From UHGV virus genome UHGV-1353897: a DNA stretch of 49,926 bases, one strand, 5' to 3'. Within the stretch, counting starts at the first letter, position 1; each line of letters starts with the position of its first letter. The translations under genes and the position numbers were made by a program. The notes under the pieces are model-generated. The model was not told the DNA's origin, did not search any database, and saw only the letters and a program-made list of their open reading frames with translations. Below are positions 1,780-47,463 of this stretch, piece by piece. The DNA comes from a virus.

Positions 1780-1812
1780 TTCAATAGATGAAGGGGTTGC
1801 TATAATAGCAGC
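1780..1812 (+). promoter_or_regulatory. promoter candidate with -10 in palindrome
   Basis: GTTCAATAGA box, 12 nt, then TATAAT (1801-1806) embedded in palindrome GCTATAATAGC; 25 nt upstream of CDS start 1837. Confidence 0.35.
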
Positions 1813-1836
1813 TCCTTTTGTTTATCGGAGCAGTTT

Positions 1837-2496
1837 ATGTCCTACTCCCTGAAGGGGCTGATGAAGCGCCCCGTCCACACATTCTTTAAACCACCCGTCG
1901 TAAAGGGGATCTACCCAGCACGAGGGCAAATCTACTACGTCAAAGGCTCCAATGGTAGCGGTAAATCCACTGTGCCGTCTCAGCTGGCGGAGAGGGATCC
2001 TCAGGCGTATGTCGTGACCCATAACGGCAAGGTCATGCTGACTGTCTGTCCTTCGTTCAACGTGGTCTGTATCGGTAAATATGACAAGTCGAAGTCCAAG
2101 GGGGTTGATTCCCTGAAGGACACTGAGCAGATGTTGTTCGCGTTGTCTATTGCTGACCAACCAGAATACTTGAAATATGATGTGATTTTCGAAGGTATCA
2201 TTCCATCCACATTATTGAGTTCTTGGATCCCCCGTCTGACACGCCCACCACGTGAATTGGTTGTGCTCTTTATGGACACTCCTCTTGAAACGTGTATCGC
2301 CCGTGTTAAATCACGTAACGGCGGTGTGGACTTCAATGAAAGTCTGGTGGTTGAGAAGTGGGAGAGAGTTCATGACCATTGTCAACGACATAAAGACTTG
2401 TTCCCTACGGTGGCTGCGGGTATGATGAAGTCTCACGGCCTAACAGTAGACCAGGCTGTGATGGCATTCCTCTGTCGTGATTTTGGGAGTATCTGA
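1837..2496 (+). CDS. P-loop NTPase, kinase-like
   Basis: Walker A GSNGSGKST near N-terminus; GGAG SD before ATG; stop overlaps start codon of downstream TS-fold gene (TGATG), suggesting translational coupling. Confidence 0.6.
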   Translation: MSYSLKGLMKRPVHTFFKPPVVKGIYPARGQIYYVKGSNGSGKSTVPSQLAERDPQAYVVTHNGKVMLTVCPSFNVVCIGKYDKSKSKGVDSLKDTEQMLFALSIADQPEYLKYDVIFEGIIPSTLLSSWIPRLTRPPRELVVLFMDTPLETCIARVKSRNGGVDFNESLVVEKWERVHDHCQRHKDLFPTVAAGMMKSHGLTVDQAVMAFLCRDFGSI

Positions 2497-3542
2497 TGGA
2501 AATCAAAGCAATAAACAACAATGACATGCTGAAACAGGCTGTCTTGGCTATCCGTGAATTCGGGATCGAATCTGATCCTGGTAATGCTGAAATCAATACT
2601 GATAGCACCCGCTTCCTTGATGGCGTGACCATAACCGTCGCCGACATCCGTGACCGCTGGCTATCCGTTGAAGGTCGTAACTCATCGGCTATCGCTGCCA
2701 TCGGCGAGACCTTCTGGGTTCTGTCCGGGCGCGATGACGTTCGCTTCCTGTCCCGCGTGTTGCCCCGCGCCGCCAACTTTTCCGACAACGGCCACACATG
2801 GCGAGCCGCTTATGGTCCGCGTCTGTACGCCCATGGCCAGCTGGATAGCGTCATCAACCGCCTGCGCAAGAATCCAAACACTCGCCAGGCGTACCTCACC
2901 ATCTATGATCCGGCTCTGGATTCGGATGCTGGTCTGGCGAAGTTCAGCGAGAGCGGCGAAGCGAAGACTAAGGACATGGTGTGTAACCTGGCTCTGTTGT
3001 TCGCCATCGTTGAAGGTCGTCTGAACCTGACGGTTATCAATCGCTCACAGGATGTTCTGTGGGGTATGAGTTCAATCAACTTCATTGAGTTCTCTATTCT
3101 TCAGGAAGTGATTGCTCGGGTGTTGGATGTTGATGTCGGTCAGTACAAGCTATTCTCTAACAATCTTCATTACTACAACAATGAAGTCAGCCAGAAGCAG
3201 CTGGGCAAGATCACGAAGGACACCAAAGTAGAAGCTGGGTTCATCAACTCCATGATCCACTTCACGAACGTGACCAACCAGAACCATATCCGCGATCTGT
3301 TCACTGGCGTGCTTGTTCATTGTGACTTCGGTAGTCCTTGGGAAACTGTTGTTGCCTTCCTGAAGGAGTATGATGCGGATCGCGGTCTGATTGTGCAGAT
3401 GGCATACTGCCTGCACTGCAAATTGAATAACAAGCTCATTAACCTGGACCTGATTCAGGATCATGGATTGAACACCGCGCTCACCCATTCTCCGGTTGAC
3501 CGCAAGATCGTTGATCCTAAGTTCCTGGAAGGTGTAGTATGA
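2496..3542 (+). CDS. thymidylate synthase / pyrimidine hydroxymethylase superfamily enzyme (divergent)
   Basis: Core aligns to TS/dCMP-hydroxymethylase catalytic segment: Cys in MVCN, exactly 20 residues before RSQD (TS: PCH...RSxD), then GxxxxNF and LHYYNNE (TS GDxHxYxNH-like); 348 aa, longer than T4 td/gp42. Confidence 0.65.
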   Translation: MEIKAINNNDMLKQAVLAIREFGIESDPGNAEINTDSTRFLDGVTITVADIRDRWLSVEGRNSSAIAAIGETFWVLSGRDDVRFLSRVLPRAANFSDNGHTWRAAYGPRLYAHGQLDSVINRLRKNPNTRQAYLTIYDPALDSDAGLAKFSESGEAKTKDMVCNLALLFAIVEGRLNLTVINRSQDVLWGMSSINFIEFSILQEVIARVLDVDVGQYKLFSNNLHYYNNEVSQKQLGKITKDTKVEAGFINSMIHFTNVTNQNHIRDLFTGVLVHCDFGSPWETVVAFLKEYDADRGLIVQMAYCLHCKLNNKLINLDLIQDHGLNTALTHSPVDRKIVDPKFLEGVV

Positions 3543-4108
3543 TGTACCCAAATCTTGAATTCTTTACGGGGCGCAAGCGTTCCGGCAAGGACTTCTGTTT
3601 GGAGTCCCTCATCAGCTATCACCAACTACAGGGTGATATGGACATCCAGCGCCTTTCGTTCTCAGATGAACTGCGCCGGGTTGCCAACTTCATCTATCCA
3701 TGGCTGCCAGCGGAGGTAGAGGATGCCGTGAAGGACGTTCCTTACGTGCACCCTGATAACCCCAAGGGCTTAACTCCACGGCAGATCTGGCTTCATCTAG
3801 GCAGCGATACGGGCTTGCGTTACGTACAGCCTGATCTGTTCCTGGCATTCTTCAAGCGCTTCCAGCTTCCTTTGGTAGAGCAGAACCCCCACGTCCATTA
3901 TATCGTGAGCGATCTGCGTACCCCTCAGGAATATGAATGGGCGCTGAGTACGAAATGTCCTATCACCCGTATTTCAAAGGCCGACCGTGCTGGTATCATA
4001 GAGGACGATATAGAGGCTTTCATTGACCAAATGAAAGTGGACTACGAATTCCTCAATCCATTTGATGGTTGGGCACCGTTCGTTAAATTCTACGGAGAAC
4101 GTAAATGA
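3539..4108 (+). CDS. 1: deoxynucleoside monophosphate kinase (T4 gp1-like)
   Basis: N-terminal P-loop GRKRSGKD matches T4 gp1 GVKRSGKD; YIVSDLRTPQE resembles gp1 YYIVPDTRQDHE; ATGA overlap with upstream gene. Confidence 0.7.
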   Translation: MMYPNLEFFTGRKRSGKDFCLESLISYHQLQGDMDIQRLSFSDELRRVANFIYPWLPAEVEDAVKDVPYVHPDNPKGLTPRQIWLHLGSDTGLRYVQPDLFLAFFKRFQLPLVEQNPHVHYIVSDLRTPQEYEWALSTKCPITRISKADRAGIIEDDIEAFIDQMKVDYEFLNPFDGWAPFVKFYGERK

Positions 4109-4659
4109 TCACAGCAGGGCATATCCAAAGCCTGCTCGAACTCCAAAAGGCCACCAACGTGGCCTACTTTGGGGAAGAGTGGAAGAATGTATGGAGTCAG
4201 AATGCAGTCATCAACTCTATCTATCGTGAGTGGGCAGAGTTCCTTGATGAAACCACCCGTGACTGGAAGGTCTATGGCAACGACATCGGGTTTGACCATA
4301 CGAACGCAGTTTATGAACTGGTGGACGTGGTACACTTCATGTTGTGCTTCATCCTTGTGGACCGCACCAAAGGTGAGATCGAAGAAGAATTTGAAGTCCT
4401 TAGTAATCGCGAATTCACCCCGTGTGCTTTGGGTGTTGCAGGGCATCGCAATGTTACGTACCGCCTTGGGCAATTCATGAACGATCCTTGCGTTGAGACT
4501 CTCATGTTCTTCCTGTCGTCTGCGTGTTCTTATATGGAGATCGACATTGAGACTTACATACTGGCGCACAAACGCAAGAACGATCGCAATCGTCTACGTG
4601 CTTCTGGTGGCGCGGATTACGACAAGTCCGCAGAAACCCCTCTGACCCTGGAGTTCTAA
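4105..4659 (+). CDS. 56: all-alpha NTP pyrophosphatase (MazG-like; T4 gp56 dCTPase/dUTPase-like)
   Basis: EWAEFLDET and ELVDVVHFMLCF motifs typical of MazG/dimeric-dUTPase fold and reminiscent of T4 gp56 (recalled from memory, not searched). Confidence 0.55.
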   Translation: MITAGHIQSLLELQKATNVAYFGEEWKNVWSQNAVINSIYREWAEFLDETTRDWKVYGNDIGFDHTNAVYELVDVVHFMLCFILVDRTKGEIEEEFEVLSNREFTPCALGVAGHRNVTYRLGQFMNDPCVETLMFFLSSACSYMEIDIETYILAHKRKNDRNRLRASGGADYDKSAETPLTLEF

Positions 4660-5201
4660 TGTTTACAGTCGTCGTTTCATACCATGCGGAGAACGCTGCT
4701 CAGGCATCCTCCAAATTCGCCGAGCACATCATCGGCGGCGGACATAATGTATTCTTTACCGAATACACCAGGCCTGTTAAACCGGGCGACGGTCTTTCGG
4801 CGACTGTTACGCATAAGATCGCCAGCGAGCAACCAGAGTCTCTGTTCAGGATGATCGAAGAGTATGCCGGTGGTGGCACCAAGATACCAGATGAACTGGT
4901 AGACGTCTATTTTGAAGGCTCGATCTATTACATCCACGCTATGCCAAAGGATATAACCATTGAACAGATGATGTATATCCTGAATATAGCACTGAACACT
5001 GCGTGCATCAACCGCACGAACTACAACAATCTGCGCAATATGTACCTAACCGACCGGCATAATGACGCATCGTCACTTGTTGAGACAATGTCCCTGAAGA
5101 GCATCCAAGAGGCGGTTAACATTTTGTCCCAGAAGGTTATGGGTGTAGACTTACTAACGACGATTAACAACAAAGAGGAAGTGAAATGGCCAGTTCATTA
5201 A
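4659..5201 (+). CDS. hypothetical protein
   Basis: 180-aa ORF in tightly packed operon between the dCTPase-like gene and uvsX. Confidence 0.5.
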   Translation: MFTVVVSYHAENAAQASSKFAEHIIGGGHNVFFTEYTRPVKPGDGLSATVTHKIASEQPESLFRMIEEYAGGGTKIPDELVDVYFEGSIYYIHAMPKDITIEQMMYILNIALNTACINRTNYNNLRNMYLTDRHNDASSLVETMSLKSIQEAVNILSQKVMGVDLLTTINNKEEVKWPVH

Positions 5202-6271
5202 TGGACCGCATGCTGAAGGTTGCTAAGAAACACGATGACCAGGCTTCAGTGCTGTCCCAATCAGACGCTCTGGAACCGTCTATCATCTGTTCTACTGGTA
5301 TTCCCCTGATCGACATCGCATGGTCTGGGCGTATTGACGGCGGCCTGATCTCCGGTATCAAGATGATGGTGGGTGATTCCCGTACCTTCAAAACGATGTT
5401 CGGCCTGGTGGACGTCAAGGCGTACATGGACAAGTTCCCTGATGCTATCTGCGTCTTTGCGGACTCAGAAAAGGGTGCCAACGCCGATTACTGGACCTCT
5501 ATGGGCATTGACATGGACCGCGTCCTGTACGTACCGATCGACAACGTTGAACAGACCAAGATCCGCTTGCTGCAGATCCTACAGGAAGTCAAGAAAGGCG
5601 ACCATGTTATAATCTTCATCGACTCTATCAGCCAACTTCCCTCCACCAAGGAAGTTGAAGATGCGATCAAAGGGAACGACACTCAAGACATGACCCGCGC
5701 CCGTGCCCTTAACAGCTTCTGGCGTGTCATGACTCCCGAAATCAACAGCAAAAATCTCGTGTGTGTTTGGATCAACTCCTATTACGATGAGATCGGCAAC
5801 CAGTATGCCGAGCCCAACATCAAAGGCGGCAAGCAGGGCTTCTTATCCTCCAACTTGATCTGGTTTATCACCCGTTCTCAGGTGAAGGAAGACAAAGATC
5901 TGCTGGGCTGGAACTTCAACATAAGCATCATGAAAGGTCGCCATGTCAAAGAGAAAGCCAAGCTCCCTGTGACGGTACTGTACAACGGTGGTATTGATCG
6001 CTGGAGCGGCCTGCTTGAGATCGCTCGTGCTCTGGGTTATGTTGATATGCCGTCTTCCGGCTGGTATGTGCGTACAGCCAAGGGCGGCTTCGATCCTGAG
6101 AAGGAAAAGAAATATCAGAAGCGTCAGATGGGTGATGATTTCTGGTATCCGCTGCTGGAGAATGTCAACTTCGCCGATGACGTGAAGAAAATGTTCGGTG
6201 TTTCTAACGGTACTGTTATGCCTGCTAACATGCTGGAGCAAATGGACCATGTTATCAACACAAGCGAATAA
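5186..6271 (+). CDS. uvsX: UvsX RecA-like recombinase
   Basis: Extended similarity to T4 UvsX: Walker A GDSRTFKT (T4 GPSKSFKS), FPDAICVFADSE, IIFIDSISQL, DMTRARALNSFWRVMTP, KNLVCVWINS. Confidence 0.9.
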   Translation: MASSLMDRMLKVAKKHDDQASVLSQSDALEPSIICSTGIPLIDIAWSGRIDGGLISGIKMMVGDSRTFKTMFGLVDVKAYMDKFPDAICVFADSEKGANADYWTSMGIDMDRVLYVPIDNVEQTKIRLLQILQEVKKGDHVIIFIDSISQLPSTKEVEDAIKGNDTQDMTRARALNSFWRVMTPEINSKNLVCVWINSYYDEIGNQYAEPNIKGGKQGFLSSNLIWFITRSQVKEDKDLLGWNFNISIMKGRHVKEKAKLPVTVLYNGGIDRWSGLLEIARALGYVDMPSSGWYVRTAKGGFDPEKEKKYQKRQMGDDFWYPLLENVNFADDVKKMFGVSNGTVMPANMLEQMDHVINTSE

Positions 6272-21258: not shown

Positions 21259-21768
21259 TTATTTGTCAGGGTTCACTAAAACAGGGGTGGATACCAGTTC
21301 GCCGTTCTTCACAGAATGCTGGACTACAACAATCTGATCGACCATGCGATATACTTCAATCCCAGCAGCCAGCATTTCAATAATGCCGTCTATGATACGA
21401 TATGGTCGGTCATAGAACACTTTAGCGATCTTGCCACTGTCGATAATACGACGGGTGCACTCTGGGCATGGACTATGAGTGACAAACATCACCAGACCAC
21501 AACAGTCTTCGGTGTGCTGGGGGAGTTTGCTCAGAGCATTCTCCTCGGCGTGGATAACACCCACCGATACCAGTTGACCGTCTACTTCCTTCTCACAGAC
21601 ATTAGGAGCGCCAGGAGCAGTCCCGTTCCAACCGATAGACAGGGGTTGGTCAACACGTGGGTCAACGATAACACAGCCAACCTTCAGGCGCTGGGCATAG
21701 CTGGACAGAGCGTATGCATGAGCCGAGCGCATATGCGCAAATAACATACGGGGTTTGATAGCCATCAC
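21259..21768 (-). CDS. cd: dCMP deaminase
   Basis: Cytidine/deoxycytidylate deaminase zinc motifs HAEENAL and PCPECTRRI; 169 aa. Confidence 0.85.
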   Translation of the reverse strand: MMAIKPRMLFAHMRSAHAYALSSYAQRLKVGCVIVDPRVDQPLSIGWNGTAPGAPNVCEKEVDGQLVSVGVIHAEENALSKLPQHTEDCCGLVMFVTHSPCPECTRRIIDSGKIAKVFYDRPYRIIDGIIEMLAAGIEVYRMVDQIVVVQHSVKNGELVSTPVLVNPDK

Positions 21769-30164: not shown

Positions 30165-30746
30165 TTATAGACCAAATTTGCTACGCCACTTTTCAACCTT
30201 GTGTTCAATAGCGTGCTCCACTTTAATGCGAGTGGCCATCAAAGAGGATCCACGGATCGCCCCTTCCCCACACCCCATGCGCGCAACATGCTTGATTAGG
30301 TCATTGACGAGTTGATCCAATCTGTCTTGACTGCGATAAGGCTGGTTGCACAACCGGATAATCCGGCCATGATAATGATGGATAAGATTCAGATGCTTTT
30401 GAGGATCACGATCAATCAGACGGAACCAGTCTTCTTCCAACAGATTAGAAGAAATATCGTTCACTGTCGCCATGTGGTTGATGACAGAGTCGATCATTTC
30501 GGCCTTGTTCAGAGAGCCGCGCATTTGGACGTCGTCATAATCCATGACGTACAGAAGGTCAATAGCAGAGATAATGACATCAGAAACTTCGCCATTCAAC
30601 GGCTCGGAAGATACTATGCCATGAAACACATCAGACAGTTCACAGATCTCTTCACCTAGTTTGTTCAGAACAAACACAGGAGAACGGTCTGGGGTATGAG
30701 CAGTACAGTCATAAGAAGTGTCGACGATAGTGTGTAGAAATTTCAT
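30165..30746 (-). CDS. hypothetical protein (possible all-alpha NTP pyrophosphatase-like)
   Basis: 193 aa; LGEEICELSDV and EVSDVIISAIDLLYV loosely resemble MazG EExxE/ELxDV motifs; weak. Confidence 0.3.
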   Translation of the reverse strand: MKFLHTIVDTSYDCTAHTPDRSPVFVLNKLGEEICELSDVFHGIVSSEPLNGEVSDVIISAIDLLYVMDYDDVQMRGSLNKAEMIDSVINHMATVNDISSNLLEEDWFRLIDRDPQKHLNLIHHYHGRIIRLCNQPYRSQDRLDQLVNDLIKHVARMGCGEGAIRGSSLMATRIKVEHAIEHKVEKWRSKFGL

Positions 30747-35834: not shown

Positions 35835-38591
35835 TTATGCCCTGATAATGGAATTTGAAATAACGTCCAAGTAATCCGAAGAATTTTCAATCGGGTTCAG
35901 GGCGCTTGGTTTGTAATTCTCTTTCAAGAACCGGACAACACGATGACGTTCTACGGTCATGCGGTTCGCCTTTTTCGCGTTCCGTGTTGGCGTCTTCAGT
36001 AAATCAAACGGCACGAATCCATGAATCCTCAGAACTTCCGATGCGTGACTGAAGATTTGCAACATGCGTTGTTCAGCGCGGAACACCCTTTCATCCCGCT
36101 CATTGGTGTATAGATTCAGATTCAGAGTGCTGATCGTATCCTGGAAATGTTTGAAGCGGCGAACCTCATGGAGGGAAACACTACGCTTCGACATCGCCTG
36201 ATAATGGCGGATAGTTTGTTCGTCCAAGATATCGTCAACATAATCCAGCATTTGGTTATACCGATTAACCAGCTGATTATAACGCCCGTCTTCCCCTTCA
36301 CCGAACGCCTGTTTTACCAGATGACACCCGTATTTCAGGCGATTAGAACCAAGGTGAAGTCTCTGATGAGATTTCAGCAACCGTATCGCGTTGTGGCGTT
36401 CCAGCATCGGCTTGGCATTCTCCAACATAATCTTCAGGATTTCGTCGATCGGGATGAAGACCTCTGGGAACTTCTTCATCATCGGAACCGATTTGCGACG
36501 AGCCAAGAATATTCTGTCGTGAACGTTGAGCATATCTTTGATGTACACAGGCTTGCTATCTTCATCCGCGTGAACGGCATGTTTGTAGAGAGACTCGCGA
36601 ATACCCCGCGCCGCAGCTGTGGTCAACGTTCTGTCCATCACCTGATGGATACACTCATAGCCAGACACCTCAATATAGACGATGCGCTCGCCCTTGTTTA
36701 TGATATCTGAGATCTGGTCGCCCGTCAGTTCTTCATACTGGTATATGTCGAAGTTGCTGCGCGTGAACGGAAACAGGCCAGGGTCTTTGGTGACCGGGGG
36801 CGTGACATACGCCAGTTCGTTCATGAACTTAACTTCAGCAGGCTCCAACACCGCACTCAGCCAATCGACGAACTTGTCAGCGAAGCACAGATAATCAACC
36901 GTCGTTTCTTCTTTACCAATCCAAGTTTCAAAGAAATCATAGAGAGCCTGAGAATTCTTGAACGCAGGGTTGTCCTTAGATTGGTTGCGCTTGGTGACAT
37001 AGGATGTGTTCGGCTTGGCCACGATGACTATCGTCCCTGTATCTTTCAGCTGCTTGATCTTCAGGTTACGAGCACGAACACTATCTTCGATCACCACAGT
37101 AACATGCTGGCCGCGATCAATCCACTTCTGGATTTCTGAAATGGTCAGGGTACTGGACTCACCCCAGTCATAGAAGATCTCCATAGAGAACGGCGATGAC
37201 AGCTCATTGAACGGCGCGGTATGGTCATAATCGCGATCAATCTCAACAGGCAGCGGGTAACGGTAATATGAATCATGAAAGCGCTTGTCTGCCGGGTATT
37301 CCTTTTCAACCATCTTGCGGAACCCACTGCCGAACATTTCACTCAGTTTTGCCTTCTCCATATACAGGGCAAGAGGACCGCGCTTACACGCCAGCTCTAG
37401 GTCACGCATCTTTTCTGTCAAGATTGCATTGGCGGTGCCCTTAAACTCCTCAGAGAGCGTCTCACGCGTGAATTCGTCATATGAAAGGTCTTCACGCGAC
37501 GGCGGTACGTTCAGCGAGCCGAGTTCGAAGAACGTATAGGACGATGGAAACTTGCTCATGATAGAGGAAGTGTCTGGATCGAGCTGATTCAGGTCAATCG
37601 GGTACGACACGCCACCCATTACAGCATAATGGGTGTTCCCCTGGCCTTTCGGCTGGATGTACGTGTTGTTGACCTTGAAATCATAACTGATATCTTCCCA
37701 GCTGAAGCGGTATGAAGCGTTCTCAACAATTGGGCGCTGTTCAGGGCGCATAACACGACCAAGACGGACCAGTTCATCGGAGAATGCAGAGAAACGAGCG
37801 TTCTTCACCGGGATCTTCACCGTCATGCCGTTGAACTCATCGGTGTCTTCCGGCTTAGGATCACGGGTTTCAAGATCTTTGGTGATCAGATCAACAGTCG
37901 GGATACGCTTGGCATTCAGGTACATCAGGAAGCGATGGAGTTTACCGTCCATGCGGCTTTCCACTGTGAACGAATCCGATACCGCAAATGGTGATTTGGA
38001 GCCAAGACCGAATGCCCCAATCTGATCATCATCTTCTTCCTTCGTACTGTGGAAGAGAGTGGTATACAACCCAGGCGTACGAATGATTTCACCATCTTCG
38101 CGACGGAACACTAGACCACCATTATAGAACGCAGGCACGCCGATGACCTCAGCTGAGTCAGGGATCTCATCTTCCTTAACCACCATGTTGCCTTCCAGCA
38201 GCACCTCATCTTCCTGCGCTGGGATAGGCTCGCCAATGATCTTCTCAAGTGGCAGACCGATGCCGTAATCACGTATTTCCAGCCATGGTTCAAAGTCATC
38301 AGGTAGATGCACAACAACCTGCTTACCCTTCGGTGCAAGGTATTTGCTATGGCGGGCAGGAGGCGGAGTGAGAGGCGCGTAGTGGGATGCCATCACACGG
38401 TGCATACGATCACGCATGCCATGGGAGTCGATGGCGTTACAGACGGTTTCGCGCAGGGCTGCAGCCTCTTTGTAACGATACAATGATGAGAACAGAGTCT
38501 CAAACATCTTATCGTTCATCTTCACGTTGAACGCCTGCCCCTGAATGGAAGACGACGAGCGGATAAAGTGCTCGGACTTGCGCATTTTCAT
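35835..38591 (-). CDS. rIIA: rIIA protein (GHKL ATPase domain)
   Basis: Bergerat-fold motifs ETVCNAIDSHG, IRDYGIGL, GAFGLGSKSPF; LNVPPSREDLSYDEF resembles T4 rIIA LDIAPSREALSLDD; immediately upstream of rIIB. Confidence 0.75.
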   Translation of the reverse strand: MKMRKSEHFIRSSSSIQGQAFNVKMNDKMFETLFSSLYRYKEAAALRETVCNAIDSHGMRDRMHRVMASHYAPLTPPPARHSKYLAPKGKQVVVHLPDDFEPWLEIRDYGIGLPLEKIIGEPIPAQEDEVLLEGNMVVKEDEIPDSAEVIGVPAFYNGGLVFRREDGEIIRTPGLYTTLFHSTKEEDDDQIGAFGLGSKSPFAVSDSFTVESRMDGKLHRFLMYLNAKRIPTVDLITKDLETRDPKPEDTDEFNGMTVKIPVKNARFSAFSDELVRLGRVMRPEQRPIVENASYRFSWEDISYDFKVNNTYIQPKGQGNTHYAVMGGVSYPIDLNQLDPDTSSIMSKFPSSYTFFELGSLNVPPSREDLSYDEFTRETLSEEFKGTANAILTEKMRDLELACKRGPLALYMEKAKLSEMFGSGFRKMVEKEYPADKRFHDSYYRYPLPVEIDRDYDHTAPFNELSSPFSMEIFYDWGESSTLTISEIQKWIDRGQHVTVVIEDSVRARNLKIKQLKDTGTIVIVAKPNTSYVTKRNQSKDNPAFKNSQALYDFFETWIGKEETTVDYLCFADKFVDWLSAVLEPAEVKFMNELAYVTPPVTKDPGLFPFTRSNFDIYQYEELTGDQISDIINKGERIVYIEVSGYECIHQVMDRTLTTAAARGIRESLYKHAVHADEDSKPVYIKDMLNVHDRIFLARRKSVPMMKKFPEVFIPIDEILKIMLENAKPMLERHNAIRLLKSHQRLHLGSNRLKYGCHLVKQAFGEGEDGRYNQLVNRYNQMLDYVDDILDEQTIRHYQAMSKRSVSLHEVRRFKHFQDTISTLNLNLYTNERDERVFRAEQRMLQIFSHASEVLRIHGFVPFDLLKTPTRNAKKANRMTVERHRVVRFLKENYKPSALNPIENSSDYLDVISNSIIRA

Positions 38592-38641
38592 AGTATAGAA
38601 ATCCTATCAATGTCAAAGGGGAACATATTGGTTGAGTGGGT

Positions 38642-38668
38642 ATAATACGGTGGGCGTCTTCAATTGAA
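38642..38668 (-). promoter_or_regulatory. promoter candidate (TTCAATTGAAG box + TATTAT)
   Basis: Minus strand TTCAATTGAAG, 10 nt, TATTAT; about 50 nt upstream of rIIA start, right after the preceding terminator. Confidence 0.3.
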
Positions 38669-38692
38669 AAAGCCCTCGACTGAGGGCTTTGT
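38664..38692 (-). terminator. rho-independent terminator
   Basis: AAGCCCTC-agtc-GAGGGCTT hairpin followed on minus strand by TTTTTC; just after stop of CDS 38698..39045. Confidence 0.5.
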
Positions 38693-38697
38693 TCAGA

Positions 38698-39045
38698 TCA
38701 ATCTTCGGTGGCAAATCGCGCCTGGAAGTCGAATGTTGGGCGCTGGGCACCAGGTTCCAACTTCTCTTCCAGATAGCCGATGATGGTGCGAGTGACCGAC
38801 ACAGGCTCTTTGCGTGGGTTGACTGGAGTAGCCAGCGCGATGATAGAGGACTGCTGCTCTTCTACACGCGTGTATTCCACATTGAAGTGATAGCGAGAAC
38901 CAAAGGCCGCCACTTCGACTTCAACGATTTGTAGATCTTTCAGGTCAGTGCTGCTCAGGGTTCCCACGTTCAACTGTGAGCGCAGATGCTCAACAATGTT
39001 AGAATACACATACTGTGGGGTGATCAGCTGTTCAATAGAACTCAT
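38698..39045 (-). CDS. hypothetical protein
   Basis: 115-aa ORF. Confidence 0.5.
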   Translation of the reverse strand: MSSIEQLITPQYVYSNIVEHLRSQLNVGTLSSTDLKDLQIVEVEVAAFGSRYHFNVEYTRVEEQQSSIIALATPVNPRKEPVSVTRTIIGYLEEKLEPGAQRPTFDFQARFATED

Positions 39046-42519: not shown

Positions 42520-42717
42520 TTAATAGAGTTTGGTGTATGTTTGTTTGACACACATAAAAGTGCTCATATATCTTTGTGATTCCACCAAATGAGCAAACGC
42601 CTTTTCTGCCGAACTCTTGTCCTTGAACTCCAGAACGGAAGTGTCTACTGCAATAGATTGATTCTTCCCGTCGAAGCCAACGGTTGTCACTAAGATCTTA
42701 TAATCTTGGGTTTCCAT
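42520..42717 (-). CDS. hypothetical protein
   Basis: 65-aa ORF; promoter cassette 30 nt upstream. Confidence 0.4.
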   Translation of the reverse strand: METQDYKILVTTVGFDGKNQSIAVDTSVLEFKDKSSAEKAFAHLVESQRYMSTFMCVKQTYTKLY

Positions 42718-42740
42718 GATGTATATCCTTGCAAAAGAAA

Positions 42741-42779
42741 GGGGAACGGGCTAATAATAACCCATTCCCCTTTATTGAA
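42741..42779 (-). promoter_or_regulatory. promoter cassette (TTCAATAAA box + hairpin-embedded -10)
   Basis: Minus strand TTCAATAAA, 11 nt, TATTAT inside nested inverted repeats GGGGAA..GGG/CCC..TTCCCC. Confidence 0.4.
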
Positions 42780-42798
42780 GGAAGCAACCCCAGTCAGA

Positions 42799-42966
42799 TT
42801 ACTTTTTCTTCAGCTCGTCCAGTTTGGCTTCGATCTGGTCCAGAATCTCTTTGCCTTTCTGAACAATCACTTCACCATCTTGCGCGTGTTTACGGAAGAC
42901 CAGAGCACCAGCGATGAAGCCGACAACCGCGCCAGGAAGCGCATAAACCAGCAGATCTTGTAACAT
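42799..42966 (-). CDS. small membrane protein (55 aa)
   Basis: Not in ORF track (under 60 aa); GAGGA SD 8 nt upstream of ATG; single TM helix then charged helix (MLQDLLVYALPGAVVGFIAGALVF...). Confidence 0.4.
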   Translation of the reverse strand: MLQDLLVYALPGAVVGFIAGALVFRKHAQDGEVIVQKGKEILDQIEAKLDELKKK

Positions 42967-43076
42967 GATAATATCCTCGCTTTATAGGCGAGGATATTTA
43001 TATCAGCGTTTCAAGAGTGCCATGAGGTTGACGCTGCTGGACTTCGACTTGTCCTCAACCTTGCGCACAGGCATCT

Positions 43077-44237
43077 TCAGGTTCGTACATACCTCGGATG
43101 GTTCCCAGCGCGACCCTTTTGCAGGTGCCAGATATGCAGAGGAACACCAGTCTCAAAGAACACAGGCATCTTCCACTTCTGGACGCCTGGAACGTGCCCT
43201 GCAGGAGCCTTTTCGCACAACAGGGTATCTGGTAGCCAGAGCGAACGGGCTTCCCAGAGCGCTGCGCAGGAGTATTCAGGCCAGACGCGTTCCATGTAGT
43301 CTATCTCATCCCAGGTACGCTCTGCGTCCCACCCGATGTAACGGGTATTCTTCAGTCGGAAGAATTTCTTCAGCCAACAAGCACCGGAGGTTTCAAAGTT
43401 CAGGCGGTTGATGAACGTCAGGTGCCCGAACTCAGCCACACAATCTTGGAACGCCTGCTCAAGGTCGGCCTCAAGGATGTCACACTCTTCATCCGTGATA
43501 GGACAACCGTTGATCTTTTTCTTCCCGTGTTTAGTCACCCAATCGTCACGGTTGGACAAGAACGCCGCTCCATTACGGTTGGACTCGCTTCCATCACGAT
43601 CACGCAACATGAAGCCAGGGACGTCAATGGTGTATTCGTTCCCGAAGACCATGTTCAGGGCTTCCAGGAAGTTCCAGGCGCTCAGGCGACCGAAGTATTT
43701 CCAGGACATCGCCGTGTCCCACAGCTGGGTGAATTGTTCTGTCTTATCGATACACACCAACATCCCACGGAAAGCGTCATATTGAGTACGGCCAGCCAGC
43801 CAGTCAATATAGGACTGAACACACGGAATCATCTTGGACTTGCGGTAGCGACAGTCGGTATCGAATCGCATGCGATCAAAGTTCAGATTATACCAATCAG
43901 AGAAGCGCTGCATCTCTTCCTTAGACTGAGGCGGCACAGGGAACTCACTGTAGATAGTCCACGGCCCGACAGCGTTATAGCAACAACCCCACAGGAATGC
44001 CATCCAGATCTTGCGCTCGACTTTCTGTTCGAGGCTGATACCTTCAGTGACTTCAATCGCATAGTCCATCAGACGCATCTGCTGGTTGTGCTCTTCTGTG
44101 TAGGACAGCGCCTCCACCCAAGCCTTGAGCAAGTACATGCGATTCTCAGGCTTGCGATAATCAACAGCCAGGTCAATCGGGTACTTCCATTCAGTCGGAG
44201 GCGTATAGCCCGTCGGCATTTTAGATAGATGCGTCAT
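43077..44237 (-). CDS. hypothetical protein (Trp/Cys-rich, 386 aa)
   Basis: Long ORF with protein-like composition; no motif recognised. Confidence 0.55.
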   Translation of the reverse strand: MTHLSKMPTGYTPPTEWKYPIDLAVDYRKPENRMYLLKAWVEALSYTEEHNQQMRLMDYAIEVTEGISLEQKVERKIWMAFLWGCCYNAVGPWTIYSEFPVPPQSKEEMQRFSDWYNLNFDRMRFDTDCRYRKSKMIPCVQSYIDWLAGRTQYDAFRGMLVCIDKTEQFTQLWDTAMSWKYFGRLSAWNFLEALNMVFGNEYTIDVPGFMLRDRDGSESNRNGAAFLSNRDDWVTKHGKKKINGCPITDEECDILEADLEQAFQDCVAEFGHLTFINRLNFETSGACWLKKFFRLKNTRYIGWDAERTWDEIDYMERVWPEYSCAALWEARSLWLPDTLLCEKAPAGHVPGVQKWKMPVFFETGVPLHIWHLQKGRAGNHPRYVRT

Positions 44238-44577: not shown

Positions 44578-44777
44578 TTTGGTTCCTTGAATATTTTGTA
44601 ACCAGCAGCGCCGATAGACATCACCGCGCCAATACAGTACATCACAGTCACGTTCAACTTCTCTGAGGTTGTTAAGTCCAGAGGGGTGAAATGATAGGCT
44701 AGGGCAGTACACATTGAAACGGCTGCCATAACCAGACCAATGAACAACAGATAATTAGACAACCGTTTCATGATCAC
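44574..44777 (-). CDS. small membrane protein
   Basis: 67 aa with two TM helices. Confidence 0.4.
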   Translation of the reverse strand: MIMKRLSNYLLFIGLVMAAVSMCTALAYHFTPLDLTTSEKLNVTVMYCIGAVMSIGAAGYKIFKEPK

Positions 44778-46369
44778 CCCTTCTTCATCAGGTCAAGGAG
44801 AGAGCGCGACGCTGCCTTCGTTGCTTCTGGCTGGGCGCTCGCCTTGGTTTTAGTTTTGGATGCCTTCTGTGGCTTCTCAGGGACTCTGTGTGCCAAAGGG
44901 TTGCTACCTCTTATCTTGCGCAGCATGGGATACTGCTCGCAATATTTATGGAATTCATCTTTTGAAAGATTAAGCCCAACAAAGTCAATAACAAAGTCAC
45001 CGATAACCGCCAACGGGGCGTCAAAATATTTCAGGATGTTCCAGCCGACGGCCTTCACACCGTTTCCATTAGCAGCCTTGGCAATGAAGAGTTCATGATT
45101 GGAATCCGGTTCCAGCTCATACCCAATAGCAGAATATTCGCCCATGATCTTGACATGATCCTTGGTGTATTGATCGTTTCGTCCCCAGCCAGTGTCCTTC
45201 GCCGCCTTACCAGAACGACCGATGATACGCTTGTCGTAATCTTCCCGTGCCTGATAGATGAATGAGATGAATGCCATGTTGTTGAACCCCAAGTCCTGGT
45301 GTACGAACTTAGGACGCCACCGATGGCTCTGCATCATAGGTTCCCCTTCCAATATGATGGTAGAATCCTTGTATTTCCCTTTGATGTATTTCACCAATGA
45401 ATTGGCCATCTCAGAAGTCTTGAGAGTGGAGTGGATGAAGTCCATGGAAGTCCAAGAAGCCAGATCTGATTTGTTGGACACTGTATACTTGCCGATGAAC
45501 ACCAGATTGATTTCCTTGAACCAAAACCCAACCTGGATCATCTTCTTGTCGAATTCGTATTCTATGAGTTCTGGCTCATATTTGGTTCTCAACCACTCAA
45601 GGAATTGAACGACACGAGTCCCCTTTCCCGTTCCACTTGTCCCGCGAATAACGACAATACCCGGCGTCACGCTAGAATTTATCATAGTCATAAAACGTTT
45701 GTCCTCTTTGGGAATCCAACCATCTTTAAACATGGCGATCATATTACGAAAGACGCTCTCATCGCCCTTTAGATTACGATACTCTGTGTCCAGTAGTTTA
45801 GAATACCACAATCCGATAGATTTGTAACCACATCCTCGTTTTGGCATACAGGTAGGATTCACAGTACCGCCGTTGTTCACCCATCTATCATAGATCCTAC
45901 GGGCGTCCTTCCAAACCCACCAATAACCATTTGAAACCATGAATGGGTAGGGAGAATTACCCCTGTTCTCCTTTATTGATTTTATTACACGTTCCCGGTA
46001 TTCTGGATCATCCCAAGGATTTATACCAGATTTGTATTTCTTGCCAGTCCTAGCCAACGCCGCCTTAAATTGGTTTGGTATGATAGAATTGTCTCCTCCC
46101 AATTTCAGGTTCAGGCATAATGGGTCCAACAGTAACTCTTCCGTAACAATAATAGACTCCAGGTCGGATGCCTCCAACCTGGTTTCAAACTTTTCTATTA
46201 TCGTCTTTAAGAATTCAGAAGCGGGGTGAGATTCCAACAACCTTTTGATGATAACACCAGAACCCATATAGGGGTCTTGTTCGGGGGTGCATGAACAAGA
46301 CCGAATCCCGACGTAGAATCTCCCAGTTGGGACATGAGTTATCCTATATGTGTAATGGTAGCGAGCCAT
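44774..46369 (-). CDS. GIY-YIG-like N-terminal domain fused to P-loop NTPase-like domain
   Basis: N-terminus YHYTYRITHVPTGRFYVGIRSC..YMGSG resembles GIY-YIG nuclease motif; central Walker A GTSGTGKGT; 531 aa continuous ORF. Confidence 0.5.
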   Translation of the reverse strand: MARYHYTYRITHVPTGRFYVGIRSCSCTPEQDPYMGSGVIIKRLLESHPASEFLKTIIEKFETRLEASDLESIIVTEELLLDPLCLNLKLGGDNSIIPNQFKAALARTGKKYKSGINPWDDPEYRERVIKSIKENRGNSPYPFMVSNGYWWVWKDARRIYDRWVNNGGTVNPTCMPKRGCGYKSIGLWYSKLLDTEYRNLKGDESVFRNMIAMFKDGWIPKEDKRFMTMINSSVTPGIVVIRGTSGTGKGTRVVQFLEWLRTKYEPELIEYEFDKKMIQVGFWFKEINLVFIGKYTVSNKSDLASWTSMDFIHSTLKTSEMANSLVKYIKGKYKDSTIILEGEPMMQSHRWRPKFVHQDLGFNNMAFISFIYQAREDYDKRIIGRSGKAAKDTGWGRNDQYTKDHVKIMGEYSAIGYELEPDSNHELFIAKAANGNGVKAVGWNILKYFDAPLAVIGDFVIDFVGLNLSKDEFHKYCEQYPMLRKIRGSNPLAHRVPEKPQKASKTKTKASAQPEATKAASRSLLDLMKKG

Positions 46370-46683: not shown

Positions 46684-47463
46684 CTATCGGACGTATTGAT
46701 AATGACTAATCAGGCGGTTCACCACTTCGACAATATTGCGGTTCAGGAAGTCGAAGTGATTCTGACCTTCTACTGGTTTAATATAAAGCATGTCTTCCGA
46801 ATTCGAAAGATCCAGTTTTTCATAATTACCCTGAGGAACAAAGATGACAAAGATGTTGTTCAGACCACACGGCTCGACATACTTCGGATTGTCATCAATC
46901 AGGACATCGCCAGCCAGCAGATGCTTTTCGTCGGTGCTGACAAACCCGTTGAAGATACCAGGGAACTTATCATAGACAAACTGACGCTTGCTGCGCTCGT
47001 GTTCCGGCTCGCACTTCGACACCGCGATGAATTCAACATTGTCGAAATCTTCAAGCAAGATATCCTTCAGATTTACCAGGAACTCGTAAGCACCGGGGAG
47101 CGGGTTCATCTTGGCGTACAAGTCAGGGCGACGCCACCAATCCATAGGATCGTTACCGCTTGGCACACGTTGTTTGTGCATCCCCAATTGGACTTCATGG
47201 TATAGCCACGCCGGATGCGCACGTTCACGCATCAGAATAGCCAGGTCGCCAGCATGGGACATATAACACTCTTTGGTAATCGGCTGGAACTGGTATGACT
47301 TATGTTCCCCCGTAGCGATAGCAGCGGCGGCGATGTTCTCTTCGTTGAACCACTGCACCCAAGGGGAGAGGCTGTCGACCAACGTCAGGTCAACATCCAC
47401 GAGGACGCGATACAGACCACCGACCTTTGATTTCATATCATAGATACAAACCAGGTTGTTCAT
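46684..47463 (-). CDS. HAD-superfamily 5'(3')-deoxyribonucleotidase-like protein
   Basis: HAD motif I DVDLT near N-terminus and motif IV LIDDNP near C-terminus; 259 aa. Confidence 0.55.
   Translation of the reverse strand: MNNLVCIYDMKSKVGGLYRVLVDVDLTLVDSLSPWVQWFNEENIAAAAIATGEHKSYQFQPITKECYMSHAGDLAILMRERAHPAWLYHEVQLGMHKQRVPSGNDPMDWWRRPDLYAKMNPLPGAYEFLVNLKDILLEDFDNVEFIAVSKCEPEHERSKRQFVYDKFPGIFNGFVSTDEKHLLAGDVLIDDNPKYVEPCGLNNIFVIFVPQGNYEKLDLSNSEDMLYIKPVEGQNHFDFLNRNIVEVVNRLISHYQYVR

Follow-up and report, generated by a model that had tools for sequence, protein, structure and literature searches.

A probable deoxyuridylate hydroxymethylase and its neighbouring DNA kinase at the entry of a ViI-type thymidine-hypermodification pathway in an AV101-like phage

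What does a phage make with a thymidylate synthase (TS) homolog that departs from the canonical enzyme around its catalytic cysteine, and whose gene overlaps that of a P-loop protein? The question is raised by positions 1837 to 3542 of the virus genome UHGV-1353897, a stretch of 49,926 nucleotides that we analysed as a whole and refer to as the window. The original prediction, made from the sequence alone, saw here a divergent TS-fold enzyme coupled to a kinase-like gene, and proposed the synthesis of a non-canonical pyrimidine: 5-hydroxymethylcytosine (hmC), 5-hydroxymethyluracil (hmU) or a hypermodified derivative. Nucleotide comparison gave an identity of 98.3% between the window and Escherichia phage AV101 (Ackermannviridae, subfamily Aglimvirinae), and of 91-97% with other phages of the Agtrevirus type, among them Shigella phage Ag3. 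We consider it very probable that the gene pair forms the entry point of the thymidine-hypermodification pathway known from phage ViI, with a deoxyuridylate (dUMP) hydroxymethylase followed in action by a DNA kinase specific for 5-hydroxymethyl-deoxyuridine (hmdU or 5-hmdU). The two features are:

1837..2496, + strand: probable 5-hmdU DNA kinase (5-HMUDK, clade 1), ortholog of ViI gp67 (PF18748, 87.7% identity, Walker A motif)
2496..3542, + strand: probable dUMP hydroxymethylase of the TS superfamily (core at about residues 1-235, C-terminal helical domain at about residues 260-340)

A TS homolog with the residues of a dUMP hydroxymethylase

Both open reading frames (ORFs) were recovered at exactly these coordinates, with 219 amino acids (aa) for the P-loop protein and 348 aa for the TS-fold protein. 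The Pfam family PF00303 Thymidylat_synt covers only residues 67-235 of the latter (E 1.5e-15), and all seven NCBIfam TS equivalogs, with cutoffs of 108-427 bits, scored below cutoff, the best one with 56.6 bits versus 327. The profile search that had been proposed as a check thus failed to return a canonical TS. In pairwise blastp, the protein matched PaMx11 gp51 (4e-41), SP10 gp188 (7e-33), SPO1 gp29 (6e-31) and E. coli ThyA (2e-12), and gave no match with T4 gp42. Its identity is 100% with the AV101 ortholog, 94% with that of CBA120 and 74.8% with that of ViI. Outside the Ackermannviridae, its nearest phage relatives are the TS homologs of PaMx11, the M6-like phages, SP10 and SPO1 (gene 29). 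SPO1 gp29 (record X60728) is a biochemically characterised deoxyuridylate hydroxymethylase, by the account of Wilhelm & Rüger 1992 given in PMC5175136, and PaMx11 and SP10 make hmdU-derived bases (PMC8989533). The 'thymidylate synthases' of CBA120, ViI and AG3 were already found to group with dUMP hydroxymethylases (PMC3184105).

The key residues of the TS homolog are D160, C163, N164, R183, S184, D186, N195, H225 and Y227. As first described, Cys163 lies within V-C-N, R183-S-Q-D186 begins exactly 20 residues further on, as does R166 after C146 in E. coli TS, and LHYYNNE is found at residue 224. C163, R183, D186, H225 and Y227 are invariant in the 56 homologs that we aligned. Three positions separate the known activities of the superfamily. 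The first lies three residues before the catalytic Cys, where an Asp is the hydroxymethylase signature and TS has a Leu (Park et al., PMC6400193). Asp160 occupies this position in the window protein and in 55 of the 56 homologs, as does an Asp in SPO1, SP10, PaMx11, T4 gp42 and MilA, whereas E. coli TS has L143; the protein is therefore expected to be a hydroxymethylase and not a methylase. The second position determines the base: it is an Asp in the cytosine enzymes (MilA, BcmA, T4 dCMP hydroxymethylase) and an Asn in the uracil enzymes (TS, SPO1 dUMP hydroxymethylase; Zhao et al. 2016, PMC5175136). N195 is the sole Asn able to match it. It is invariant in all 56 homologs, and Asn is also present in SPO1, SP10, PaMx11 and E. 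coli TS, versus Asp in T4 gp42 and MilA. The base should therefore be uracil, which excludes the hmC part of the initial proposal. Asn195 stands 9 residues past D186, versus 8 in E. coli TS, T4 gp42 and MilA, so that the one-residue indel anticipated from the sequence is indeed needed in the alignment. The third position concerns the sugar: Lys133/Ala176 goes with a preference for ribose and Arg/Ser with a preference for deoxyribose (PMC5175136), and the window protein, with R130 and S184, is of the deoxyribose type.

Other peculiarities of the protein recur in its relatives. After the catalytic Cys, all the dUMP hydroxymethylases compared have an Asn, whereas TS has a His (His147) and gp42 and MilA have a Thr. 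Ahead of the specificity Asn, the window protein, SPO1 gp29 and PaMx11 gp51 all carry the one-residue insertion. The chain continues past the catalytic Tyr for 121 residues; this stretch is also long in SPO1 and SP10 (157 residues) and in PaMx11 (132), and shorter in E. coli TS (55) and T4 gp42 (28). The excess of about 100 aa over T4 gp42 reported initially is accurate (348 versus 246 aa). By these alignments, the C-N dipeptide, the insertion and the long C-terminus are all family traits, and the protein is typical of the dUMP hydroxymethylase family. The word 'divergent' thus does not suit its place among dUMP hydroxymethylases such as SPO1 gp29, PaMx11 gp51 and SP10 gp188. SPO1 gp29 in particular shares with it the Asp at Cys-3, C-N, R-S-x-D, the insertion before the specificity Asn, the Arg/Ser deoxyribose residues and the long C-terminal extension. 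It differs by an identity of about 34% over the core and by P-C-N in place of V-C-N. The systems differ as well: in SPO1, T is wholly replaced by hmU, and there is no DNA kinase or transferase step.

The predicted structure points the same way. An AlphaFold2 model, the second check that had been proposed, was built on the 56-sequence alignment and is confident throughout (predicted local distance difference test, pLDDT, 94.3; predicted template modelling score, pTM, 0.93). In a Foldseek search of the PDB, it aligned with MilA over about 349 columns (TM 0.71/0.77), that is, over the full length of the fold, including the C-terminal helical domain. TS structures cover the core only (about 240-290 columns, TMq about 0.53). 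In the model, the TS-type C-terminal tail that closes over the folate is lacking, and a MilA-type helical domain of 121 aa would stand in its place. We infer the hydroxymethylase activity of the Ackermannviridae clade from the signature residues, the homology with SPO1 gp29 and the presence of an hmdU-derived base in ViI and CBA120 DNA.

Could the protein be a true TS making dTMP, next to a P-loop gene unrelated to base modification? Some features are shared with TS: the Pfam match, the catalytic Cys, Arg, Asp, His and Tyr, and the Asn at the base-specificity position. Most GenBank/RefSeq records do call the protein 'thymidylate synthase', and about 60% of the T positions in ViI virion DNA are plain thymine (PMC11721090), so that a contribution of TS-like chemistry is formally possible. 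However, the scores against the TS equivalogs fall far under cutoff, Asp160 and Asn164 replace Leu143 and His147 of TS (PMC6400193), the model has a MilA-like domain where TS has its tail, and the protein is much nearer to the SPO1, SP10 and PaMx11 hydroxymethylases than to ThyA. Two further facts lie outside the protein itself: CBA120, whose ortholog is 94% identical, cannot incorporate 3H-thymidine (Kutter et al. 2011, PMC3184105), and the adjacent gene is the ortholog of a proven hmdU-specific DNA kinase, which requires hmdU in DNA. We therefore regard a true TS as very improbable.

Still less probable, in our opinion, is a dCMP (or CMP) hydroxymethylase comparable to T4 gp42 or MilA, which would make hmC, or hmdUMP through deamination of hm-dCMP. 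MilA is the closest solved structure both by sequence (E 8e-18, followed by TS with E 1e-8) and by fold, the Asp at Cys-3 is common to dCMP hydroxymethylases, and the window encodes a dCMP deaminase. Yet the specificity residue is Asn in every one of the 56 homologs, versus the Asp of T4 gp42 and MilA (PMC5175136), the residue after the Cys is the Asn of the dUMP type and not the Thr of gp42 and MilA, T4 gp42 itself is unmatched by blastp, and CBA120 has no substitution of hmC for C (PMC3184105). The likeness to MilA can be put down to the shared C-terminal helical domain and to the lack of a solved dUMP hydroxymethylase structure, none being returned by the Foldseek search of the PDB. MilA, the CMP 5-hydroxymethylase of Streptomyces rimofaciens (PDB 5b6d, 5jnh; PMC5175136), has the full-length fold, the five-helix C-terminal domain and the Asp at Cys-3 in common with the window protein, and differs from it in its cytosine-type Asp and its Lys/Ala ribose positions.

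Two side observations concern the same family. The hydroxymethylase shares 95% identity with its counterpart in a Dickeya Limestonevirus, close to the value for the Kuttervirus CBA120, but only 74.8% with its counterpart in the Kuttervirus ViI. For the adjoining kinase and deoxynucleoside monophosphate (dNMP) kinase, the identity with ViI is 88-91%. This pattern suggests that the hydroxymethylase gene has been exchanged between genera. Besides, seven homologs of bacterial or metagenomic origin, each of about 360 aa (P0040, P0042, P0046, P0047, P0056, P0062 and P0066, from, for example, Paenarthrobacter and Rhizobium rhizogenes) combine Lys/Ala with Asn and Asp, and by the logic of these residues they would be UMP (ribo) hydroxymethylases. 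We know of no description of such an activity.

The P-loop protein as a DNA kinase

What, then, is the partner gene? Its product matches the Pfam family PF18748 HMUDK_HMUD1 with 358.9 bits (cutoff 27; E 7.4e-108) over profile positions 1-195 of 196, and the Walker A motif GSNGSGKST noted in the original prediction occupies residues 37-45. Neither this match nor that of the TS homolog to its Pfam family can be put down to chance. It is 87.7% identical over 219 aa, its full length, to ViI gp67 (YP_004327432, Vi01_061c), which is syntenic and lies directly 5' of ViI thyA. YP_004327432 is the ViI gp67 of Table 1 in Lee et al. 2021, who demonstrated in vitro that it transfers the radiolabelled gamma-phosphate of ATP to 5-hmdU in DNA, with the same product as M6 gp54 (PMC8989533). 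The 5-HMUDK gene co-occurs with the adjacent dUMP hydroxymethylase gene and with genes for an amino acid:DNA transferase (PF18724) and a second kinase (kinase 2, PF18747). The association of kinase, hydroxymethylase and transferase is also present in SP10 and PaMx11, and that of 5-HMUDK with dUMP hydroxymethyltransferase was reported by Lee et al. 2018 (PMC5889632). On this evidence, the P-loop protein should be a DNA kinase that acts after replication, on hmdU already in DNA, and not a kinase of free nucleotides.

A sequence search among solved structures returned only marginal P-loop matches for the kinase (nucleotide-binding domain of CFTR, E 0.008), and no 5-HMUDK structure was found; NCBIfam gave no match for the kinase, nor for the dNMP kinase and ACT-like proteins encoded downstream. 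That the P-loop protein should be a terminase small subunit, or a free-nucleotide kinase using hmdUMP or thymidylate, is barely credible, since the signs in its favour (the RefSeq label 'terminase small subunit' on ViI gp67 and its orthologs, the terminase description of PHROG 800 with E 1.6e-68, a weak match to PHROG 761 'thymidylate kinase' with E 1.4e-6 and one record reading 'putative thymidylate kinase') are opposed by a full-length, specific and very strong match to the Pfam 5-hmdU DNA kinase family, with no terminase Pfam domain found, by the proven action of the 87.7%-identical ViI gp67 on hmdU in DNA (PMC8989533), by the span of the PHROG 800 match (positions 4-220 of a 511-position profile), by the location of the real ViI small terminase, Vi01_162c, some 73 kb away and next to the large terminase, and by the separate dNMP kinase already encoded two genes downstream.

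The proposed pathway and its other genes

How would the pair fit into a pathway? Three further genes follow it in the operon:

3539..4108, + strand: dNMP kinase-family protein (PHROG 139 'deoxynucleoside monophosphate kinase', E 7.5e-47; 91% identity to ViI 'dnk')
4105..4659, + strand: all-alpha nucleoside triphosphate (NTP) pyrophosphatase of the dimeric dUTPase type (Pfam dUTPase_2, E 4e-9; PHROG 173, E 3.8e-40)
4659..5201, + strand: ACT-like phage protein of 180 aa (Pfam PF24021 ACT_phage, E 3.4e-78; 55% identity to ViI Vi01_057c)

The first of these had been called a gp1-like dNMP kinase, a likeness that holds at the profile level (PHROG 139) and is undetectable by direct comparison with T4 gp1. 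Its searches gave no PDB match, T4 gp1 (1DEK) included, and no NCBIfam match, and tblastn found matches solely in Ackermannviridae-like phages and a few others. The CBA120 ortholog is an apparent dNMP kinase (PMC3184105), and the window protein presumably converts hmdUMP to hmdUDP. For the second gene, the proposed 'gp56-like dCTPase' had the right superfamily, that of the dimeric dUTPases (E 9e-4 with the C. jejuni dUTPase 1w2y), and probably the wrong substrate: this presumed dUTPase/dTTPase is expected to act on dUTP and dTTP, not dCTP, and so to keep both out of phage DNA, if the substrates suggested in PMC3184105 apply. The ACT-like gene is translationally linked between the NTP pyrophosphatase gene and uvsX. 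Small molecules are the usual ligands of ACT domains, and a regulatory role in nucleotide metabolism is therefore conceivable for its product.

Searching the window with ViI proteins by tblastn revealed other components, listed here with a nucleotidase found by family profiles:

21262..21765 (stretch matched by tblastn), - strand: dCMP deaminase (63.5% identity to ViI Vi01_030; Pfam dCMP_cyt_deam_1, E 4e-16)
30168..30746, - strand: MazG-like pyrophosphatase, a second candidate NTP house-cleaning enzyme (50% identity to ViI Vi01_011; PHROG 1247, E 4.7e-34)
43077..44237, - strand: amino acid:DNA transferase (aGPT-Pplase clade 2), ortholog of the ViI serine:DNA transferase gp247 (PF18724 ADDT, E 5.4e-60; 90% identity)
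44774..46369, - strand: ORF of 531 aa with an N-terminal homing-endonuclease-like part and a C-terminal 5-hmdU DNA kinase 2 (ViI gp243 family)
46684..47463, - strand: homolog of NT5C-type 5'-deoxypyrimidine nucleotidases, 259 aa (PF06941, E 9.5e-9, 35.8 bits versus a cutoff of 24.8; PHROG 2643, E 6e-5)

The NT5C homolog is found in the interval from kinase 2 to the DNA polymerase gene, with DUF7254 and DUF7292 genes on its flanks. A dTMPase is known in hmU phages. By analogy with the Bacillus hmU phages, the NT5C homolog is a candidate dTMPase.

With these genes, the following route can be proposed. A dCMP deaminase would supply dUMP, whose C6 would be attacked by Cys163, with methylene-tetrahydrofolate giving the one-carbon unit. 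A water molecule activated by Asp160 would then add to the exocyclic methylene, in place of hydride transfer, to yield 5-hmdUMP and tetrahydrofolate. The dNMP kinase (3539-4108) and a host nucleoside diphosphate kinase would convert hmdUMP to hmdUTP, while the dUTPase-type pyrophosphatase and the nucleotidase would deplete dUTP and dTTP/dTMP, and the phage polymerase would place hmdU into DNA. There, the P-loop DNA kinase would phosphorylate a fraction of the hmdU in duplex DNA to phosphomethyl-dU (5-PmdU), the transferase (43077-44237) would swap the phosphate for serine to give O-seryl-dT, and a decarboxylase dependent on pyridoxal phosphate (PLP) would turn the latter into 5-(2-aminoethoxy)methyl-dU (5-NeOmdU), a base that blocks many restriction endonucleases.

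The later steps have been worked out in other members of the family. Lee et al. 2018 identified 5-(2-aminoethoxy)methyl-dU in ViI (PMC5889632), Lee et al. 2021 reconstituted the succession of kinase, serine transferase and decarboxylase (PMC8989533), about 40% of T is 5-NeOmdU in ViI and CBA120 (PMC5889632; 2024 review, PMC11721090), and the genes are conserved across the family according to the same review (PMC11721090). Family membership and orthology are supported here by sequence comparison, and the kinase, transferase and decarboxylase activities were shown in this literature for the ViI orthologs. The outline of the initial proposal, a non-canonical pyrimidine made by a variant TS-fold enzyme with an extra kinase step, is thus upheld, as hmU that is subsequently hypermodified; its implied novelty is not, as the system was already published.

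The window and ViI agree in gene order (kinase, TS homolog, dnk, dUTPase, ACT-like, uvsX, with 'thyA' being Vi01_060c beside Vi01_061c), in Pfam families and in sequence (87.7% for the kinase, 74.8% for the TS homolog, 91% for dnk and 90% for the gp247 transferase). They differ in kinase 2 and in the tail of the transferase, both discussed below, in the dUTPase-like and ACT-like proteins, which are only 55-60% identical, and in the QueC-like gene of ViI (Vi01_023), which tblastn did not find in the window. The T4 enzymes gp42, gp1 and gp56 follow the same logic, by which a TS-fold hydroxymethylase, a dNMP kinase and an all-alpha NTP pyrophosphatase replace a canonical pyrimidine. However, gp42 has the cytosine-type Asp179, only 246 aa and no C-terminal domain, with pairwise similarity undetectable, no direct similarity was found between gp1 (PDB 1DEK) and the window dNMP kinase, and the hmC of T4 is glucosylated, whereas the window system has a DNA kinase and a transferase.

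Several observations weigh against our interpretation, in addition to the plain thymine of ViI DNA. The second element of the published hydroxymethylase signature, a Ser or Thr two positions ahead of the catalytic Tyr, is replaced by Ala104 in the window protein. The same position is Ala in the proven SPO1 gp29, and Ala or Gly across SPO1 gp29, SP10 and PaMx11; the Ser/Thr appears, from this comparison, to be specific to dCMP hydroxymethylases rather than dUMP hydroxymethylases. The literature that we searched contained neither a direct enzymatic assay nor a structural study of a dUMP hydroxymethylase from the Ackermannviridae. The remaining points concern the later steps. The C-terminal tail of the transferase is frameshifted in the window by a single-base deletion between 43113/43112 relative to AV101 and ViI (GGGTACGCG becoming GGGT-CGCG), which does not fall in a homopolymer run. 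The deletion affects 43006-43119 on the - strand, where the last 35 or so residues are replaced by 11 out-of-frame ones, so that the protein has 386 aa, compared with 405 (AV101) and 411 (ViI). Residues 49-292, which form the Pfam domain, are unaffected, and the DNA downstream of the deletion is otherwise the same as in AV101. The missing base reflects a sequencing error or else a recent mutation.

Kinase 2 (PF18747 HMUD2, E 7.7e-152, residues 236-530, positions 44774-45664) is divergent too, with 46.6% identity to ViI gp243, compared with 84.5% for AV101 kinase 2. It is in frame with the upstream homing-endonuclease-like segment, no stop codon separating the two parts. The N-terminal 235 aa or so match the endonucleases of PHROG 15209/314 and carry a YxYxI...G.FYVG motif of GIY-YIG-type look, although Pfam detected no GIY-YIG domain in this part. 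At the same site, AV101 has a different, SegD-like gene and a separate kinase 2, and the DNA identity between the window and AV101 breaks exactly at 44899-46367, which therefore forms a mosaic patch. The fused ORF is shared with other Agtrevirus and Limestonevirus phages at 89-93% DNA identity, and in fGh-Ecl02 it is a single coding sequence of 532 aa, 'putative homing endonuclease'.

Finally, the decarboxylase gene lies outside the window: the ViI gp226 decarboxylase was not found by tblastn, and a PLP decarboxylase 91.6% identical to it is located just past the window end in AV101. For this reason we infer the final base in this phage, as well as the substrates of the accessory enzymes. In the AV101 record (2306-3493), this decarboxylase is annotated with 300 aa (2591-3493), together with an overlapping opposite-strand ORF at 2267-2560. 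Homology to ViI gp226 begins at AV101 position 2306, so that the annotated start is probably too far downstream.

Two variations on the ViI-type scheme deserve mention, and even taken jointly we hold them to be unlikely. The hydroxymethylase and the DNA kinase may form a complex coupling the supply of hmdUTP at the fork to the phosphorylation of nascent hmdU, an idea that the tight translational linkage and the MilA-like C-terminal helical domain of the hydroxymethylase could accommodate; or the variant kinase 2 ORF and the truncated transferase tail may alter which, or how many, hmdU sites are modified, or the chemistry of the final base.

Operon layout, annotation and significance

Is the junction between the two genes itself unusual? 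The TGA stop of the kinase and the ATG of the TS homolog overlap by one base (cTGATGg, 2494-2498), and translational coupling had been proposed on these grounds. The overlap is real, but it is general to the operon and also present in ViI: the downstream junctions overlap as ATGA, ATGA and TAATG, followed by that of the ACT-like gene with uvsX. Four of the operon junctions overlap whichever way they are read, and the ViI annotation has the identical four, of the 1-nt and 4-nt types. Start/stop overlap is a trait of the whole operon, not peculiar to the pair, and amounts to ordinary phage operon compaction. The start of uvsX (window 5186-6271, + strand) is ambiguous: the ATG at 5186 gives 361 aa, and that at 5201 gives 356 aa, as annotated in AV101. 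The junction with the ACT-like gene overlaps at either start, by 1 base (TAATG, 5201) or 16 bases (5186).

Upstream of the kinase gene, a terminator-like scan and minimum free energy (MFE) folding pointed to one more element:

1790..1828, + strand: hairpin with a 13-bp GC-rich upper stem (1790-1818) and a U-run (element 1774-1836)

The hairpin occupies the gap that separates the kinase start from the preceding ORF, which stops at 1761. Its MFE is -31.6 kcal/mol for 1762-1839, and a longer, lower stem is predicted to pair with the Shine-Dalgarno region of the kinase. The AV101 copy is identical, and the ViI copy is conserved, with a U-G to C-G change in the stem. The element might end transcription, serve as a processing site or regulate translation. 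It includes a perfect extended -10 (TGcTATAAT); this TGnTATAAT was considered as a promoter and was not called, its -35 being poor. The promoter scan found no convincing sigma-70 site for the operon.

Most database records give other names to the two proteins. The TS homolog is mostly 'thymidylate synthase', and the kinase is 'hypothetical protein', 'terminase small subunit' or 'putative thymidylate kinase'. Even the proven 5-hmdU DNA kinases ViI gp67 (ViI 38203-38865) and SP10 gp186 (42558-43472) are called 'terminase small subunit' in RefSeq, as is PHROG 800 in its description, while ViI gp243 is labelled 'guanylate kinase'. The 'terminase small subunit' labels of RefSeq and PHROG 800 are misannotations of the kinase.

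The ViI-type system was already known, its pathway having been worked out experimentally in 2018-2021, and what the window contributes is confirmation alone, for an AV101-like Agtrevirus. In practice, the present analysis is of use for re-annotation, for which it provides a simple rule: an Asp at Cys-3, an Asn both after the Cys and at the specificity position, and Arg/Ser at the sugar positions. The pathway gave the first examples of a nucleobase kinase and of an amino acid:DNA transferase acting on DNA, and it makes the DNA of Ackermannviridae, which are candidates for phage therapy and biocontrol, resistant to most restriction enzymes.

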